DNA of 64,000 nucleotides from Carcharhinus amblyrhynchos (lineage: Eukaryota). Both the position numbers and the translations under genes were made by a program. This document shows, one piece after another, positions 5,691-63,358 of this stretch. Location of the stretch: assembly GCA_965287045.1 (NCBI GenBank), contig OZ336880.1:32178001-32242000 (forward strand), in the 5' to 3' direction. The number at the start of each line of letters is the position of its first letter. The stretch's first letter is position 1. The notes below the pieces were generated by a model. It was not told where the DNA came from. It did not search any database and saw only the letters and a program-made list of their open reading frames with translations.

Positions 5691-5904
5691 TTCCACTTCT
5701 GTTCCATTTCTTAGAAACACCTGCCACATAACCATGTGGTTACAAGAGCAGATCAGAGGCTAGGAATTCTATGGCAAATAGCTCACCTCCTGACTTCCCC
5801 ACCATCTACAAAGTACAACTAAGGAGTGCAAGGAGGCACAAACTCAGGCTAGGAGGCCAATCATATAGACCTGAGATGAGAGGAAACTACTTCATCAAAG
5901 AAGA

Positions 5905-7278
5905 AACTCCATCATCAAAGAAGAAAAAGCAAGATACCTAGAAGAGAACAGGGGTTGTACAAGCAGACGCAGCATGGATTTGTGGAGGGGAAGTTGTGTT
6001 TAACGAATTTATTGGATTTCTATGAGGATGTGACTAGTGCGGCAGACAGAGGGGAACCAGTGGATGTGGTGTTTTTAGATTTCCAGAAGGCATTCGATAA
6101 GGTGCCTCACAAAAGGTTGCTGCAGAAGGTTAGGAGACACGGAGTTGGGGGTAAAGTGTTAGCGTGGATTGAGGATGGGTTATCTAACAGGAAGCAGAGA
6201 GTTGGAATCAATGGGTGCTTTTCTGGTTGGCAGTTGGTGACTAGTGGAGTGCCGCAGGGATCGGTGCTGTGGCCTCAACTGTTTACCATTTACATAGACG
6301 ATCTGGAGGAGGGGGCTGAGTGTAGGGTAACGAAATTTGCTGATGACACACAGATGAGTGGAAAAGCGAATTGCGTGGAGGGCACGGAAAGTCTGCAAAG
6401 AGATCTGGATAGGCTGAGTGAGTGGGCAAGGACCTGGCAGATGGAGTATAACGTTAGCAAATGTGAGGTTATCCACTTTGGTAGAAATAATAATAGGAAG
6501 GAATATTATTTAAAGGGTGAAGAGCTGCAGCATGCTACTGTGTAGCGGGACCTGGTGGTACTTGTGCACGAATCGCAAAAACCCAGTCTGCAGGTGCAGC
6601 AGCTGATCAAGAAGGCAAATGGAATGTTGGCCTTTATCAAGAGGGGGATAGAATATAAAAGCAGGGAGGTCTTGCTGCACTGTACAGGGCACTGGTGAGG
6701 CCGTAACTGGAGTACTGTGTGCAGTTTTGGTCCCCATATTTGCGATAGGATATACTGACCTTGGAGGGAGTACAGAGAAGGTTCACCAGGCTGATACCGG
6801 AGATTAGAGGGTTAGTTTATGAGGAGAGATTGAATAGACTGGGTCTGTCCTCATTAGAGTTTAGAAGGCTGAGGATGGATCTTATAGAGACTTACAAGAT
6901 AATGAAAGGGCTAGATAGGGTAGAGGTAGAGAGATTCTTCCCGCTCAGAAAGGAAAACAGAACTAGAGGGCACAGCCTCAAGATAAGGGTGGGGGGGGGG
7001 CTGCAGTTTAGAACGGAGTTGAGGAGGAACTTCTTCACTCAATGGGTGGTGAATCTCTGGAATTCTCTGCCCATTGAAGTGGTGGAGGCTACCTCGTTGA
7101 ATATATTTAAGTCACGGGTAGATAGATTTCTGATAGACAAGGGAATTAAGGGTTATGGGGAGAAAACGGGAAAGTGGAACTGATTCACCAGATCAGCCAT
7201 GATCTTATTGAATGACGGGGCAGGCTCGAAGGGCGAGATGGCCTACTCCTGCTCCTATTTCTTATGTCTTATGTTCTT
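5905..7278 (+). mobile_element. 5'-truncated CR1 LINE (RT through 3' tail), relatively young
   Basis: ORFs 5955-6545 ([38 protein letters not shown]) and 6761-7183, ending in the ttatgtcttatgttc tail. Confidence 0.95.
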
Positions 7279-21190: not shown

Positions 21191-21297
21191 CTATCTAATA
21201 TCCTCAGGCTCTATTTTGATAGGTTTCAATACTTCATTCTTCTTTTCTGTGTGATTTAGGACGGTCTGACAAAACTCCTTCAAGGTTCCTATGTTTT
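21191..21297 (-). CDS. NAB1: NAB1 last coding exon, 107 nt including TAG
   Basis: ttttttttcaatgtaacag|AA AAC..., encodes (E)NIGTLKEFCQTVLNHTEKKNEVLKPIKIEPEDIR*, matching the NAB1 C-terminus IKxEPED.R. Confidence 0.94.
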
Positions 21298-23044: not shown

Positions 23045-23197
23045 CTGAAGAGTGAGGCTCTCTTGGGTTGCTTGAATAAAGTCTGCTTAATTCATTCGAC
23101 ACTTGCTGAGCAAGCTGTAGATCTTCTCTTGATACCATTTGCTGCATTATTTGCCTACTCTGATGGTCAGAGATCCTGAGATTCAGTGGTTTTTCAG
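23045..23197 (-). CDS. NAB1: NAB1 coding exon 6, 153 nt, symmetric phase 1-1
   Basis: ttttgctttcag|CT GAA..., encodes (A)EKPLNLRISDHQSRQIMQQMVSREDLQLAQQVSNELSRLYSSNPREPHSS, donor TCAG|gtaatg. PLNLR and ELSRLY are NAB1 motifs. Confidence 0.92.
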
Positions 23198-24825: not shown

Positions 24826-26756
24826 GACTTAGCGGTATTATCGCTAGACTATTAATCCAGAAACTCAGTTAATATGCTGGGGGTCCAGGTTCGAATCCTG
24901 CCATAGAACATAGAACATTACAGCGCAGAACAGGCCCTTCGGCCCACGATGTTGCGCCGACCAGTTAAAAAAAAACAACAACAATGACCCATTAACCTAA
25001 ACCAATCCCTTTTCGTCCATAAACCTGTCCACAGACCTCTTAAACGCCCCCAAACTAGGCGCATTTACAACTGCAGCAGGCAGGGCATTCCAATCCCTCA
25101 CCACCCTCTGGGTAAAGAACCTACCCCTGACATCTGTCCTATAACTACCCCCCCTTAGTTTAAAGCCATGCCCCCTCGTGCTAGATTTTTCCATCAGAGG
25201 AAAAAGGCTATCACTATCCACCCTATCTAAACCTCTAATCATCTTATATGTTTCAATAAGATCCCCTCTTAGCCGCCTTCTTTCCAGCGAAAACAACCCC
25301 AAATCCCTCAGCCTCTCCTCATAGGATCTCCCCTCCATATCAGGCAACATCCTGGTAAACCTCCTCTGCACCCTCTCCAAAGCCTCCACATCCTTCCTGT
25401 AATGTGGGGACCAGAACTGCACACAATACTCCAAGTGCGGCCGCACCAGAGTTGTGTACAGTTGCAACATAATGCTACGACTCCTAAATTCAATCCCCCT
25501 ACCAATAAACGCCAAGACACTGTATGCCTTCTTAACAACCTTATCTACTTGATTCCCAACTTTCAGGGATCTATGTACACATACACCTAGATCCCTCTGC
25601 TCCTCCACACTATTCAAAGTCTTCCCGTTAGCCCTATACTCAACACATCTGTTATTCCTACCAAAGTGAATTACCTCACATTTCTCTGCATTAAACTCCA
25701 TCCGCCACCTCTCGGCCCAGCTCTGCAACCTGTCTAAGTCTTCCTGCAAACTATGACCCTTCCTCACTATCTACCACACCTCCGACTTTGGTGTCATCAG
25801 CAAATTTACTGATCCACCCAACTATACCCTCATCCAGATCATTAATAAAAATCACAAACAGCAGTGGCCCCAACACAGATCCCTGAGGCACACCACTTGT
25901 AACCGAACTCCATGATGAATATTTACCGTCAACCACTACCCTCTGTCTCCTATCCGCTAGCCAATTCCTAATCCAGTTCCCTAGATCACCCCCAATCCCA
26001 TACATCTGCATTTTGTGCAGAAGCCTACCATGGTGAACCTTATCAAACGCCTTACTAAAATCCATATACACCACGTCCACTGCCTTACCCCCATCCACCT
26101 CTTTGGTCACTTTCTCAAAAAACTCAATAAGGTTAGTAAGGCACGACCTACCCGCCACAAAACCATGCTGACTATCTCCAATCAACTCATTACTCTCCAA
26201 ATAACTATAAATCCTATCCCTAATAATTTTTTCCAAAACCTTGCCCACAACAGAAGTGAGACTCACCGGTCTATAATTCCCGGGGAAGTCTCTGTTCCCC
26301 TTCTTAAACAATGGGACAACATTCGCTAACCTCCAATCATCTGGTACTATACCAGAGGCCAACGACGACCTGAAGATCAGAGCCAGAGGCTCTGCAATCA
26401 CTTCTCTTGCCTCCCAGAGAATCCTGGGGTAAATCCCATCCGGACCAGGGGACTTATCTATTTTCAGACCCTCCAGAATATCCAGATGGAGGAATTTGAA
26501 TTCAATACATTAAAAAAATCTGGAATTAAGAATCTACACATGGCCATGAAATCATTGTCGACTGTTGGAAAAATCCATTTGATTCACTAATGTCCTTTAG
26601 GGAAGGAATTCTGCCAACCTTGCCTGGTTTGACCTGCGTGTGACTCCAGAGCCACAGCAATGTGGTTGACTCTCAACTGCCCTCCAAGGGCAACTAGGGA
26701 TGGGCAACAAATGTTGGCCATCCAGCAACACCAATGTCCCATGAATGAATAAAAAA
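24826..26756 (+). mobile_element. Deu-domain SINE split by a CR1 (halves 24826-24905 and 26483-26756)
   Basis: Head ...ggttcgaatcctgccat continues as cagatggaggaatttgaattcaat, then Deu core and cccatgaatgaataaaaaa tail. Confidence 0.85.
24904..26482 (-). mobile_element. Young 5'-truncated CR1 LINE (near-intact RT)
   Basis: ORFs 25751-26401 and 24997-25767 cover RT motifs ([27 protein letters not shown]) to the C-terminus with one frameshift; (tgttcta)n tail. Confidence 0.96.
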
Positions 26757-27951: not shown

Positions 27952-28117
27952 CTTGTCCATCCATAGTCTCTGCAGGAGGGCTTCTGGAATTCTGCTCTTC
28001 AGAATACAGCCTGCAAACTGTGGCAGACGGATGTCTCTCAGATACTTGTAACATATCCTGACCTGTTTGCTCACGCACAAGCATTATGTATTTAGCCGCT
28101 ATTGTTTCAAGTTGAAT
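27952..28117 (-). CDS. NAB1: NAB1 coding exon 5, 166 nt
   Basis: tttatttcag|ATT CAA..., encodes IQLETIAAKYIMLVREQTGQDMLQVSERHPSATVCRLYSEEQNSRSPPAETMDGQ, donor CAAG|gtacaa, phase 0 to 1. Resembles the human ...SEEHS...SDGQG segment as recalled. Confidence 0.9.
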
Positions 28118-36000: not shown

Positions 36001-36855
36001 ATTTTGAGCATTTATAAAATACTTTTGGATTTGCTTTTGGAGTTACCAACAAATCTATTCTCACATACTCACGTTGCCCCTTAATTTCCCTTTTCAGTTC
36101 TCTCTTGTACTCTCTGCATTCAGCTTGGTTCTTTGCTGAATTATGAATCCATCATAAACACCCTTTTCCCATGAGCAGGTTCAGAGAGCCAAAGGTCCAC
36201 TGACTTCCGTGGGACTGGATGATCCATCGATGGATGGGCCCATAAAATCTCAACTCATTATTCTTCAAATCCCTGTCCATCACAACCTGTTATCTTGATT
36301 GTTACTAAGGGCTGTGTAATCCCTGTATACTTGGGAAATTACTTTCTTCTTTGACAAGACATGAAAGTTTCATAAAACATGGGCTGGTGATACAGCCCCA
36401 CTAAAAGGGCCATTTACAGAACAGTTGCATAGTGAAAGAAAGGGCATGTAAATGTAGATCTTATGCAGTCGAATTACAATAGGCTACTGGACAAGGCAGT
36501 TAGCTCAAAAAAGTAATCAGAAAGTCCAGAAAGTTGAAACTGTTCCAGGGATATGTAACTTTTTTTTTAAAAGTTGCAACACTTTTGCGTGACAATGGAA
36601 GTAGCAGTTTGCAATGCATCAAATATTAGGCATGTCATCACCCTCTGCAACCTAAAGATATGACTCATGTGGATCATTAGAAGAGTATGACATTTTAAAT
36701 ATCAGCCCAGCAGATTTTCACTTATTAAATGCAACATGAGCCAATTGCTCTGTTGGTAAACTAAGTGGAGTGGTCAGGTGTCTTCAAGTATAAGTGCCAA
36801 AATGTGAACAGCAGAGCGTTTAGTACAGAAACGTCTTTATAAAGTACAGTTGCAG

Positions 36856-37407
36856 AAGATCCTTGTCAGACCCCACTTGGAGTACTGTGCGCAGTTCTGG
36901 TCGCCTCACTGCAGGAAGGATGTGGAAGCTATTGAGAGGGTGCAGAAGAGATTTACAAGGATGTTGCCTGGATTGGGAGGCATGCCTTATGAAGATAGGT
37001 TGAGGGAGCTAGGTCTCTTCTCCCTGGAGAGACGAAGGTTGAGAGGCGACCTGATAGAGGTTTATAAAATGTTGAGAGGAATAGATAGGGTGGATTCTCG
37101 GAGGCTATTTCCCATGGCTGAAATGGTCGCTACGAGAGGACACAGGTTTAAGGTGCTGGGAAGCAAGTATAGAGGAGATGTTAGGGGTAAGTTTTTCACT
37201 CAGAGGGTGGTGAGTGAGTGGAATCGGCTGCCGTCGGTGGTGGTAGAGGCGAACTCGCTGGGGTCTTTTAAGAGACTTCTGGATGAGTACGTGGGATTTA
37301 ATGGGACTGGGAGTTACATATAGTTCTATGGCCTGGTAGGTATGGATATGATCGGCGCAACTTGTGAGCCAAAGGGCCTGTTTGTGCTGAAGTGTTCTAT
37401 GTTCTAC
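36856..37407 (+). mobile_element. Young CR1 3' fragment
   Basis: Uninterrupted 157-aa ORF LVRPHLEYCAQFWSP...FFTQRVVSEWNRLP; tgttctatgttcta tail. Confidence 0.95.
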
Positions 37408-40400: not shown

Positions 40401-41726
40401 GCAGCAACCATCCACATAACCTCACTAAGCAACTGCACGGCATATGGAGAGCATTTTCCACTTTTTCCATTATAAATTTTAAACACAGAACATTCCTAGA
40501 TCACAAGTGTGAAAAAAAAGGGCAGCACTTCATTTTTGTATTTTTTCTCTTCTCCTATGCAGGAAGCTGATTAATTAATACTTGATTTCACTACCATCTG
40601 TAGAAATGAAACTCCTATCCAGAGGGAAACATTTAAAAAAGAATCGGCCATCACATACATGGGTTTACTAGAGATCTAGACATTAGCATGTCTTGACTGC
40701 TTCTGCTAAATTATTTTGGAGCATCAGCCTAAATGTTCCAGTCACTAGTTAGTGTCACTAATTGTTCTCTAACTTTTCTTCATTTTTTTCACTCGTTATT
40801 CTTACTCCATGTCACAGTATCTTGGTTTAACTTTCCTTTTGCAAAGGACTTTGATATGTACTTTAGACTCCAGCTTTAAACCTCAATAATTCCACTTTTG
40901 AACAATGTTAATGTACCAGACCATATAGCTGGTTTCGCCTTAAAGAATACAGGTGCAATTTTCTCAAAAATGTTTTAAGTGTAAAACGGGTGAGAAAAGG
41001 GGAGGGGGGTCATGGTAATTTATGGCACTCTGTGCAGTACAGAGACCATAATGTGGATTGCGGTCAGCAAGCAGTATATTGGGAGATCTGTCACTGCCCT
41101 CCCCATCCCATCTCCTTAACTGTCCCCCACTTTTCATCCCTCTATGGAGCTCCCCTCCCCAATGTGGCCGTACTCCCATTAGGCCTCCACTCCCTCAAGC
41201 CCAACCCATGCGCGCTATCTGGTGGGCAATGCCAGGGTGCTCAGCTAGCACTGCCTCATGGGCACTGTCCTGTTCCCAACCACCACAGGGCTTCAACGGC
41301 TTTCAGTCCCCATTGGTGGGGACGATCTGTGCTTCTTGCTGGCAAAGACTTGACTGGTGAGAGGACAAAGGTAAGTAAACCCAGACAGTGTCCAGTGTTC
41401 ATTAATGACACGTTAAACACATCATTAAAATTTAGATCAGTCTTGCTGAAAGAACAGCCAGAAAAAAATCAAGAGGAGGGCAAGTCATCAGGTATGAAAC
41501 CAATTTTTCATTTCTCGCCCTATCTTTCTGGCTCGCCATTGACCAGTGTGACAAGCTGGTAGGGTCCTACCCTATTTCTGTGACTCAGCCAGTATTCATG
41601 GTATTTTGAGGCTGAAAGATTTAATCTTAGCCAAAGTGTGGCAGAAGAGTGAAGAAGAAAGAATTTATCTATTTTTGCCGTATGATTCATTACCGTAGGA
41701 AAATAAATGTTTTAATTTAACTTAAC

Positions 41727-42067
41727 GAGCGGCATGGTAGCACAGTGGTTAACATTGCTGCTTCACAGTTCCAGGGACCTGGGTTCAATTCCCAGCTTGG
41801 GTCACTGTCTGTGTGGAGTTTGCACCTTCTCCTCGTGTCCACGTGGGTTTCCTCCGGGTGCTCCGGTTTCCTCCCACAGTCCAAAGATGTGTGGGTTAGG
41901 TTAATTGGCTATGCTAAATTGCTCCTTAGCGTCTTGGTTGTGTAGGTTAGCAGGATTAGCTGGTAATATACGGGCCTGGGTGGGATTGTGGTCAGTGCAG
42001 ACTCGATGGGCCGAATGGCCTCTTTCTGCACTGTAGGGTTTCTATGATTCTATTTCTATGATCTATA
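41727..42067 (+). mobile_element. Full-length HE1-like V-SINE
   Basis: A/B boxes, V-domain gggtttcctccgggtgctccggtttcctcccacagtccaaagatgtg, CR1-type (ttctatga) tail. Confidence 0.92.
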
Positions 42068-42923
42068 GTTTAAAAAGGAAACCAGGCTAGAGTGAGTTAA
42101 TCTTGTGAAATGATATTCTGTTCATGTCATGTATAACATCAGAAGTTCCAATACATTAGAGCCAAGGACTTGTGCAGAGAAACTACCTTCTTTGTCATGA
42201 ACATTATGTGAAGTATTGGAAAACAACCTGATGTACAATGCAATTCATTGTAAATGATAGTGGAACTGTTCTTAAAAAAAAATATTTTGCATGGTTTGCA
42301 TTCACATCATGTTGCAACTGTCTGCACTTGAGGTTTATGGCACATGTTAATTTTGGGCATTTTTTTTATAGATTCTCAAACATTACTGCCTGTGGCTTTT
42401 CAAACAGGGTGATGTCTGGCACAGCCGTCACAATATCTTGGGAGCAGTTCTACTTACTGATTGCTCAATCCCTTGGTAGGATGTACAGTGTTTGCAGGCA
42501 GACTTGTCACCAAGATGAGGTAAACAAGCTGCGAAAACTTTTAAATAAAAAAGGACAAATAACTGAAACCAAAACTTGTGGTCTATACGATTAAGGTCAC
42601 CCTCACCCACTGCCCTGCAGAGGTAGTGCAGAAGTGTCAAATTGTATCAGTAGAAAATTAAACCTGAAGGCTTTGTAATCACTTTCATGCTCCAAATGAC
42701 GGTGTTCATGACATTTAGGAATATAAGAGAAAGCTCTTAGTCACTGATGTTTTATATGGAACACAGTCTAGAGCCTTCAACACTGATTAATCTATCCACT
42801 GAGGCATTTTATTGTTTAAAGCACCTTCAATTAATACAAAGATTCTGCCAAATATTTACAAATCATATGACTTTAAAACTTTTCACATTAGTACCTGAAT
42901 ATTACGAATCATGGCCTCATCAC

Positions 42924-42992
42924 CTTCTCTTTTAACGTCTCTTGTCTCTGTTGCAAAATCTGTAGCGATTCTTGAACATGTACAGAACCATC
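42924..42992 (-). CDS. NAB1: NAB1 coding exon 4, in-frame 69-nt form (alternative 98-nt form to 42895 is out of frame)
   Basis: cattttgcag|GAT GGT..., encodes DGSVHVQESLQILQQRQETLKEK, resembling the DG..QD/E exon of NAB1 orthologues. Only donor AAG|gtgatg keeps the frame. The 3' boundary is uncertain. Confidence 0.75.
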
Positions 42993-43555
42993 CTGCAAAA
43001 TGCAACATCAGTTAAATGCTTTATCATTATAAAAGGGTTTTCACATGCATCAACTACAGTAATTGGTAACAGCAACAGCTTTAAGTTTGAGAAAGGAATA
43101 GTGAGCCTCAGTGCTCACCTTTTTAAGAGAGTAAATCAGACAGAATTGTCAGCATCTGCACATGCTTAGTTAAACCTGGAAATCAGGAAGTTGCTGTCCA
43201 ACTTGCCCTGTTTCTCCACAAGCTTTGCTACCTGGCAAAGGGTATGAAGAAGCAATATTTAACATTGAACATGCCAAAAAAAAAGTTAAGGTTGGAGCAT
43301 TCAGGGTAAGTGAACTACTGTGAGGAACCTTAATTTACTACCAAACATTTCTTTGGAGTGTAAAATGTAATTTTATAAGTGTAGAGGCATATTCCTTCAG
43401 ATTTTAAAAATTAGAAATTTGGCTTTACTTTTTCCTCTGTCTCTCAGTCAGATCCTTCTTTCATTTTGTAAATGTAATGTTATATTGAATTAAATATAAT
43501 TTATATTGGTTTAGAGTCTGTGTGTCTCAGTGAGGAATCTGAGTGCTTGAAGAGA

Positions 43556-44931
43556 TGGGGGGGGGAAGAGGGGGAAGGGGGGGGGGGGAGAGGGGGAAGT
43601 GGGGGGGGAGAGGGGGAAGTGGGGGGGGAGAGGGGGAAGTGGGGGGGGAGAGGGGGAAGTGGGGGGGGAGAGGGGGAAGTGGGGGGGGAGAGGGGGAAGT
43701 GGGGGGGGAGAGGGGGAAGTGGGGGGGGAGAGAGGGGGAAGTGGGGGGGGAGAGAGGGGGAAGTGGGGGGGGGAGAGGGGGAAGTGGGGGGGGAGAGGGG
43801 GAAGTGGGGGGGGGAGAGGGGGAAGTGGGGGGGGGAGAGGGGGAAGTGGGGGGGGGAGAGGGGGAAGTGGGGGGGGGAGAGGGGGAAGTGGGGGGGGGAG
43901 AGGGGGAAGTGGGGGGGGGAGAGGGGGAAGTGGGGGGGGGAGAGGGGGAAGTGGGGGGGGGAGAGGGGGAAGTGGGGGGGGGAGAGGGGGAAGTGGGGGG
44001 GGGAGAGGGGGAAGTGGGGGGGGGAGAGGGGGAAGTGGGGGGGGGAGAGGGGGAAGTGGGGGGGGGAGAGGGGGAAGTGGGGGGGGGAGAGGGGGAAGTG
44101 GGGGGGGGAGAGGGGGAAGTGGGGGGGGGAGAGGGGGAAGTGGGGGGGGGAGAGGGGGAAGTGGGGGGGGGAGAGGGGGAAGTGGGGGGGGGAGAGGGGG
44201 AAGTGGGGGGGGGAGAGGGGGAAGTGGGGGGGGGAGAGGGGGAAGTGGGGGGGGGAGAGGGGGAAGTGGGGGGGGGAGAGGGGGAAGTGGGGGGGGGAGA
44301 GGGGGAAGTGGGGGGGGGAGAGGGGGAAGTGGGGGGGGGAGAGGGGGAAGTGGGGGGGGGAGAGGGGGAAGTGGGGGGGGGAGAGGGGGAAGTGGGGGGG
44401 GGAGAGGGGGAAGTGGGGGGGGGAGAGGGGGAAGTGGGGGGGGGAGAGGGGGAAGTGGGGGGGGGAGAGGGGGAAGTGGGGGGGGGAGAGGGGGAAGTGG
44501 GGGGGGGAGAGGGGGAAGTGGGGGGGGGAGAGGGGGAAGTGGGGGGGGGAGAGGGGGAAGTGGGGGGGGGAGAGGGGGAAGTGGGGGGGGGAGAGGGGGA
44601 AGTGGGGGGGGGAGAGGGGGAAGTGGGGGGGGGAGAGGGGGAAGTGGGGGGGGGAGAGGGGGAAGTGGGGGGGGGAGAGGGGGAAGTGGGGGGGGGAGAG
44701 GGGGAAGTGGGGGGGGGAGAGGGGGAAGTGGGGGGGGAGAGGGGGAAGTGGGGGGGGAGAGGGGGAAGTGGGGGGGGGAGAGGGGGAAGTGGGGGGGGGA
44801 GAGGGGGAAGTGGGGGGGGAGAGGGGGAAGTGGGGGGGGAGAGGGGGAAGTGGGGGGGGGAGAGGGGGAAGTGGGGGGGGGAGAGGGGGAAGTGGGGGGG
44901 AGAGAGGGGGAAGTGGGGGGGAGAGGGGGGA
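43556..44931. repeat. G-rich tandem repeat, unit about 21 bp (GTGGGGGGGGGAGAGGGGGAA), about 65 copies
   Basis: Directly visible; homogeneous 21-mers in the centre, with 20- and 22-mer variants at the edges. Confidence 0.98.
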
Positions 44932-47720: not shown

Positions 47721-47772
47721 CTCCATTTTTATTCGTTTGGGCGACGATTCGTCTTGTTCTGCACATCTAGAC
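47721..47772 (-). CDS. NAB1: NAB1 coding exon 3, 52 nt (NLS-like PKRIK and SUMO-type IKME)
   Basis: aactgcag|G TCT AGA..., encodes (R)SRCAEQDESSPKRIKME, donor GAG|gtaatg, phase 2 to 0. The preceding intron is only 119 bp. Confidence 0.94.
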
Positions 47773-47891: not shown

Positions 47892-48025
47892 CTGGAGGTT
47901 TTATAGGTATATTTGTAGGTTACTTCTCGGGAGACCTGTCGAGCTAATGTAAATAGTTCATCTCTCCGAGTGAGCAATGCGTTATCCTTTGTACAGAGTT
48001 GAGCAGCTGCTTCATTAACAGTTAG
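47892..48025 (-). CDS. NAB1: NAB1 coding exon 2 (NCD2 C-terminal part), 134 nt
   Basis: tttgtttacag|CTA..., encodes [44 protein letters not shown](R), donor CAG|gtgaga, phase 0 to 2. Confidence 0.96.
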
Positions 48026-50287: not shown

Positions 50288-51106
50288 CTCATGAAGTGTA
50301 AGATGTTTTCCATCCTTCCTTTTGGAATCAAACCGACCGTATATTGCACTATATTTTCGGATTTCTTCTTCTTTGTGAGGGTCACCATCAGTCATGTCAA
50401 AGATGTGACTAATCATTTTTGCTAACTTCTTATTGGTTTTTAAAAATTCTCTCACTTCATTTCTGTCTACTTTTGGAATGCCTTGAATCAAACGCTCAAC
50501 AGATTCTGTAATTGCAACGACTGCAGCAGCATCAAGAGTTTCACCATTTTCTTTTGGTGAAGATGGAGATGCAGGATCAGCAGGGGAAAGACTCTGTTCA
50601 CTCTCAGTAGTGGAATGTCCTTGCCAGAACCGTAGTTCACTGCATATTTGCAGTGGTGAATTCCCTGCCATGCCAGACTTATTAGGTCCCAGTCCCTGAC
50701 TGCACATGGTAGTTAAGCATTTTGGAAACTTCACAGGAGGATCCCGGATGTTACTGTTTCTTTCATTATTGTTAGCATTTGACCCAGAAAAAGCAGCGGA
50801 GCTCTCAGATATTTTGAATAGTGGGATGCTGCTGACCGGGAGAGAGTTCAGGGGTTGATTGAAGACAGAGGGATTTGTCACCCAGTCTCTCAAAGCTTTT
50901 TGCAACCTCCTGACATGCAGAGGTTTGCTAGCCATGCCAACCAGGGCCATGATTTCCAAGAATTCCTCCTCCCCTGCTTCACAGAGCTGCTGTACATCGT
51001 CTCCCCCTTGCTGAATGAAAGCATCATAATAAGACAAGAGATTGGCTCGCTGTAGAATGCGATAGAGTTGCAGTTCACCAAGGGTCCTTGGTAAAGAAGC
51101 TGCCAT
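50288..51106 (-). CDS. NAB1: NAB1 coding exon 1 (NCD1 domain and start of NCD2), 819 nt / 273 codons
   Basis: Translation [72 protein letters not shown]...[29 protein letters not shown] matches NAB conserved domains. Acceptor ttttaaatacag| puts the exon start at 51121 (15 nt of UTR), ATG at 51106, donor GAG|gtacgt at 50288/50287. Confidence 0.97.
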
Positions 51107-62805: not shown

Positions 62806-63358
62806 TAAGAACATAAGAAATAGGAGCAGGAGTAGGCCATCTAGCCCTTCGAGCCTGCCCCGCCATTCAATAAGATCATGGCTGATCTGTCGTGGCTCAG
62901 TTCCACTTTCCCGCCCTCTCCCCATAACCCTTAATCCCCTCTATTATCAAAAACCCATCAACCCGCTTCTTAAAAATATTTAGCGAGGTAGCCTCCACCA
63001 CTTCAACGGGCAGAGAATTCCAGAGATTCACCACCCTTTCAGTGAAGAAATTCTTCCTCAACTCCGTTCTAAACCGCCCCCCCTTTATCTTGAGGCTGTG
63101 CCCCCTAGTCCTACTGTCCTTTCTGAGTGGGAAGAGTCTCTCCACCTCTATCCTATCCATCCCATTCATCATCTTATACGTCTCAATGAGATCTCCCTTC
63201 ATTCTTCTAAACTCTAACGAGTACAAGCCTAGTTTATTCAGCCTCTCCTCATAGCTCAACCCCCTCAACTCCGGCATCAGCCTAGTAAACCTCCTCTGCA
63301 CTCCCTCCAAGGCCAAAATATCCTTGCGTAAGTACGGCGCCCAAAACTGCACACACTA
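62806..63358 (-). mobile_element. Young CR1 3' fragment
   Basis: Uninterrupted 151-aa ORF QFWAPYLRKD...NFFTERVVNLWNSLP...GKWN, same subfamily as 6761-7183; ttatgttctta tail. Confidence 0.95.

Follow-up and report, generated by a model that had tools for sequence, protein, structure and literature searches.

The window (the whole 64,000-nt stretch of Carcharhinus amblyrhynchos DNA that was analysed) contains on its minus strand a NAB1 (NGFI-A-binding protein 1) gene of seven coding exons, which were placed by alignment to orthologues. Coding exon 1 (50288..51106; 819 nt, 273 aa) encodes NCD1 and the first part of NCD2, and coding exon 2 (47892..48025; 134 nt) encodes the remainder of NCD2. These are followed by coding exon 3 (47721..47772; 52 nt), which ends in phase 0 at 47721; coding exon 4 (42895..42992), which has 98 nt in the assembled form and 120 nt in the contigs of DNA samples and by the length of its orthologues; coding exon 5 (27952..28117; 166 nt), which begins with IQLE in phase 0; coding exon 6 (23045..23197; 153 nt); and the last coding exon, exon 7 (21191..21297; 107 nt with the stop included). 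The six exons other than exon 4 are all in frame.

Exon 1 is 97.8% identical over 273 aa to NAB1 of Mustelus asterias (P0133, XP_078084732.1), the closest of 40 matching proteins, which points to a ground shark as the likely source, and exon 2 is 97.8% identical to the corresponding part of the same protein. A profile scan of exon 1 identified both NCD1 (PF04904, E 5e-45) and NCD2 (PF04905, E 4e-28, profile positions 2-80), domains that occupy residues 6-83 and 191-318 of P0133. The NAB1-type C-terminal region (PF04902) was assigned through alignment, the profile match itself lying on residues 323-514 of P0133, where exons 3-7 of the window align at 84-97%. By these comparisons the gene is an ordinary shark NAB1. 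All of its exons align with those of M. asterias, and its product has 516 aa once 22 nt are added to coding exon 4; the two genes differ in that the window lacks these 22 nt, which encode the same QMALARMK segment.

Exon 4 is entered through the acceptor ...ttttgcag|GAT at 42992. In the incoming frame (frame 1) it reads DGSVHVQESLQILQQRQETLKEKVMRP*, ending at a premature TGA (42911-42909, minus strand); another 333 nt separate this stop from the last exon junction downstream. The shifted frame continues as ...EGDEAMIRNIQ to the normal exon 4 donor, CAG|gtacta at 42895 (42889..42897, minus strand). The break is located between 42926 and 42927 on the minus strand, where the QMALARM codons and the first base of the following lysine codon are absent. 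It lies in unique sequence, outside any tandem repeat or homopolymer. The two ends of the gap share no base, and without microhomology the loss is not accounted for by replication slippage. A one-base slip was considered as the cause and rejected, the missing letters numbering exactly 22.

The first-pass annotation of this DNA had described the 98-nt exon, its acceptor, the TGA, the shifted GDEAMIRNIQ peptide and the donor at 42895, and each of these coordinates checks in the window. Its placement of the neighboring exons is likewise confirmed, the following exon starting with IQLE at 28117 and the upstream exon ending in phase 0 at 47721, with the consequence that skipping of exon 4 is in frame. 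It had also pointed to a GT after 42924 that would give an in-frame exon of 69 nt, and the motif AAG|gtgatg is indeed found there. The predicted lengths of NAB1 are 516 aa with the intact exon, 499 aa with the 69-nt exon, 476 aa with the exon skipped, and 362 aa when the deleted exon is spliced normally.

The ancestral form of exon 4 was assessed in a set of 159 stored proteins, 42 of which are cartilaginous-fish entries; 41 of these were tested for the segment, P0005 being omitted from the count, and the main shark cluster was represented by 15 of its 19 members among the matches listed. The pattern LKE-Q(7)-GD[DE], with eight residues between LKE and GD[DE], occurs in 39 of the 41 entries tested, and the two entries without it, like P0005, end after the first coding exon. 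Among the matches listed, the segment was found in all 21 named cartilaginous species (11 sharks, nine rays and skates, and one chimaera). This rules out the possibility, raised by the first-pass annotation against its own reading, that the shifted GDE...RNIQ peptide is a coincidence. The exon encodes 40 residues in cartilaginous fishes, as it does in paddlefish, lungfish and several amphibians, and the exon of the window is therefore 22 nt short. The suggestion that the 98-nt form derives from an ancestral 120-nt exon by loss of about 22 nt thus holds, and the contigs described below make the number exactly 22. With these letters counted, the product matches the 516-aa length of NAB1 in most named sharks, and the QMALARMK segment is the same as that in Mustelus and Scyliorhinus.

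Exon 4 varies more widely outside the fishes. Its coded length falls to about 37-39 aa in birds, reptiles and marsupials, and in eutherians it is down to about 30 aa (e.g., among P0010, P0025, P0069 and P0110), a tetrapod series that looks like the stepwise loss of a segment of helical appearance. The exon is skipped in 14 of the 159 stored proteins, all of them tetrapod models. Together with the shorter amniote versions, this skipping indicates that the segment tolerates change in other lineages. The exon that the tetrapod models skip (e.g., mouse E9PZ64, P0110), and that is shortened in eutherians, is the same exon as in the window, with phase 0 on both sides and an in-frame skip; in contrast, there is no skipped form in the 42 cartilaginous-fish entries, and the tetrapod forms are known as database models. 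None of the stored fish entries has a match to the skipped junction. Of five candidate short proteins over the exon, one gave a match, P0159, which is uninformative and enters coding exon 5 from unrelated upstream sequence.

The region of exon 4 was compared with assembled contigs of sequencing runs over the stretch 42100-43450 (1,351 nt) in four of the 24 listed runs (X1, X3, X6 and X21; the others are X2, X4, X5, X7-X20 and X22-X24). Four runs, X1-X4, which come from two samples of one study, contain 0.89-0.93 of the sampled words of the window. In X1 (sample S1, depth 5.2) and in X3 (sample S2, depth 15.4), one contig each covers 42100-43200, about 1,100 nt, with no other letter than those of the window and with 22 letters inserted behind 42926; in both, the insertion has the full local depth. 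A manual minus-strand translation of the inserted letters gives Gln-Met-Ala-Leu-Ala-Arg-Met, followed by the first base of a Lys codon. Wherever the contigs cover the remainder of the 1,351-nt stretch, the window matches them without a further substitution or gap, and this holds also for a 10-base homopolymer near 43280. The contig of X6 (from a related organism, organism B) has the 22 letters with one silent change, and elsewhere it carries eight substitutions and two 1-nt gaps, single differences that may be errors at its low depth of 2.0. The intact exon is thus present in the contigs of all three DNA runs examined (X1, X3 and X6), and no contig of these runs over 42100-43450 carries the deleted 98-nt form. 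X21, a run of organism B that is guessed to be RNA, gave no records on this stretch and is uninformative on expression or splicing.

From the absence of differences in X1 and X3, against 10 outside the gap in organism B, we infer that the two samples belong to the species of the window; S1 and S2, which come from a single study, could be the same animal or the source of the assembly. The first-pass annotation had treated the frameshifted exon as the state of the lineage and had named an in-frame exon restored by reads as the result that would overturn it; the exon is restored in the contigs of X1, X3 and organism B, and that part of its reading falls. A frameshift fixed in the species is at odds with the intact exon in two of two otherwise window-identical samples, presumably conspecific with it, and in organism B. 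On present evidence, the proposed lineage-level feature is not real.

The same contigs bear on whether the window might hold a very recent, decaying duplicate of NAB1, with the contigs representing the functional copy. Like alleles, two near-identical copies would be merged in such contigs (bioRxiv 10.1101/2024.07.30.605881). The depth of the NAB1 contig in X3, 15.4, is not above that of unrelated contigs (16.5-19.8), which is a weak hint because depth is not copy number. Moreover, the flanks of the gap show no differences and every other exon of the gene is intact, and a duplicate is very unlikely.

If the deletion were fixed or common in the lineage, the gene would have to work either by use of the latent donor that follows 42924, for a product of 499 aa, or by leaving the exon out, for one of 476 aa. 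Compensation of a frameshift by a cryptic splice donor is a known class of event, and the likeness here is that the latent GT would be in frame on the deleted allele. The candidate donor, AAG|GTGATG (42918..42926, minus strand), was read from the sequence and lies wholly 3' of the break; the intact allele therefore has it as well, and its use there would produce an exon of 91 nt that is out of frame. The site predates the deletion. Its nine bases show no other letter in X1, X3 or X6. The deletion neither created nor strengthened the site; it shifts nothing but the frame, an effect to be expected from half of all deletion lengths that break the frame. The case thus differs from the known class in that the frameshift is not fixed, the site is older than the frameshift, and use of the donor is putative.

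Donor strength was scored by a crude count of matches to the donor consensus (Watson-Crick plus G-U pairs) and not by a trained model. On this count the latent donor scores 5+1, the normal exon 4 donor 6+0 and the real exon 5 donor 5+0. Sites scoring at least as high as the latent donor number 233 in 29.8 kb, or 7.8 per kb, at which density one within a 98-nt exon is ordinary. The latent donor could be used on the deleted allele. As a rescue of the gene, the role that the first-pass annotation had proposed for it, it is not supported: the deletion did not make the site, the 69-nt junction is absent from all 159 stored proteins, and the samples have the intact exon.

Fixation with rescue nevertheless has points in its favor. 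Both routes are in frame, the latent site is no worse by count than a real donor of the same gene, the skipped tetrapod models and the 30-aa eutherian forms show a segment that tolerates change, and X1-X4 carry no organism label, so that a very close sibling lineage is conceivable. Against it, X1 and X3 have the intact exon at full depth with no other letter over about 1,100 nt, and organism B already differs by eight substitutions and two gaps. The donor is older than the deletion and of a common kind, and no stored cartilaginous-fish protein has the 69-nt or the skipped junction. Fixation with rescue is largely refuted by the contigs and is very unlikely. The chance is equally slim that the window derives from a shark population, or from a sibling species of very recent origin, that commonly or always carries the deletion and makes, by way of the dormant donor, a functional NAB1 with 17 residues fewer; this would repeat the exon shortening of birds, reptiles and mammals.

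The gap is likely a variant of one haplotype or an assembly error, with no lineage-wide change of splicing. This was the fallback of the first-pass annotation, and it is where the evidence now points, since samples that match the window in every other letter have the intact exon. A mutation that seems to inactivate a gene in a single reference assembly can prove to be a rare allele or a consensus error. The present case resembles such mutations in being one frame-breaking indel in a conserved gene that is missing from other samples and from a relative; it differs in that its 22 nt exceed the usual homopolymer error in length. Logan contigs collapse variation into one path (bioRxiv 10.1101/2024.07.30.605881). 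A heterozygous carrier could therefore display the intact form alone, and for the same reason a heterozygous allele and a consensus error would look alike in contigs.

Upstream of exon 4, in the intron, lies a tandem array of 21-nt units (43556-44931) with 66 copies, 95% purine on the plus strand and with runs of 8-9 G. It is about 1.4 kb long and lies 560 nt from the exon 4 region; its central copies are uniform, and most copies with shorter runs are found near its edges. An array of this composition is likely able to form G-quadruplex or triplex DNA.

An error of consensus or polishing, in an animal with two intact copies, is a real possibility, although it falls short of an even chance. No contig over the compared stretch has the deleted form, and in all other letters the samples match the window. 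Short-read polishing could mend single bases yet leave a 22-nt gap. Long-read consensus errs mostly by short indels in homopolymers, unlike the clean loss of 22 nt in unique, non-homopolymer sequence seen here. In a human assembly, most loci of low HiFi coverage were GA rich (bioRxiv 10.1101/2021.07.02.450803), and to that extent the purine array near the exon, being the kind of sequence linked to such low coverage, offers a possible route to a local error. An error is disfavored in that the 1,351 nt show no second one and the six other exons keep their frames.

The agreement of the rest of the stretch with the contigs, the intact frames of the other exons, the clean loss of 22 nt and the position of the break in unique sequence argue for an allele over an error. 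The deleted form has no support outside the assembly in the contigs of X1, X3 and X6, which counts against it, as do the lack of microhomology at the break, the purine array nearby and the chance that S1 and S2 are a single animal or the assembled one. On balance we lean towards a rare heterozygous deletion allele that entered the assembled haplotype.

If the allele is real, use of the normal donor on it would yield a protein of 362 residues, its stop codon lying 333 nt upstream of the last junction. Under the 50-55 nt rule, a stop more than that distance upstream of the last junction leads to nonsense-mediated decay, and the mRNA of the deleted allele would be a target of that pathway. Any protein made despite decay would still contain NCD1 and NCD2, whereas most of its C-terminal region would be gone. 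The intact allele, together with NAB2, would make up for the deficit, and rescue through the second donor would be unnecessary. Single Nab1 knockouts are presumably viable. NAB1 and NAB2 are partly redundant, and a severe phenotype is seen in the double knockout (PMC2235890, PMC5827560); one review words the mouse neuropathy as following loss of Nab1 "or" Nab2 (PMC8301837). A heterozygous carrier would plausibly be healthy.

A real allele would amount to one loss-of-function variant in one animal. For users of the assembly, the gap is a warning that a NAB1 model derived from it would be annotated as truncated or mis-spliced, though the matching samples have a normal 516-aa gene. Should the deletion after all prove fixed and rescued, which is unlikely, it would be of specialist interest as a recent exon shortening through a dormant splice site. 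By title, literature on shark NAB1 gave nothing related, and literature on NAB1 isoforms gave nothing on NAB1 splicing.

There were several further observations on the gene and its surroundings. The 22 missing letters hold a perfect palindrome, of 10 bases in X1 and X3 and of 8 in organism B, which would allow only a weak hairpin and may be due to chance. The exon 5 donor, AAG|GTACAA at 27952, is the weakest real NAB1 donor by the crude count, and two stingray isoform models (P0138 and P0139) end in DGPGTKSI, which looks like read-through at this donor. Short segments of dispersed repeats at 43150-43240 and 43340-43430 reach a summed depth of up to 375-524 in X1 and X3, and contigs break there. 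Outside the compared stretch, an interspersed repeat at about 41715-42062 has several copies of 70-90% elsewhere in the window and may account for the small shares of runs X19-X24, which are guessed to be RNA. The open frames at 24997-26509, 5880-7183, 36808-37323 and 62897-63355 are presumably fragments of LINE reverse transcriptase.
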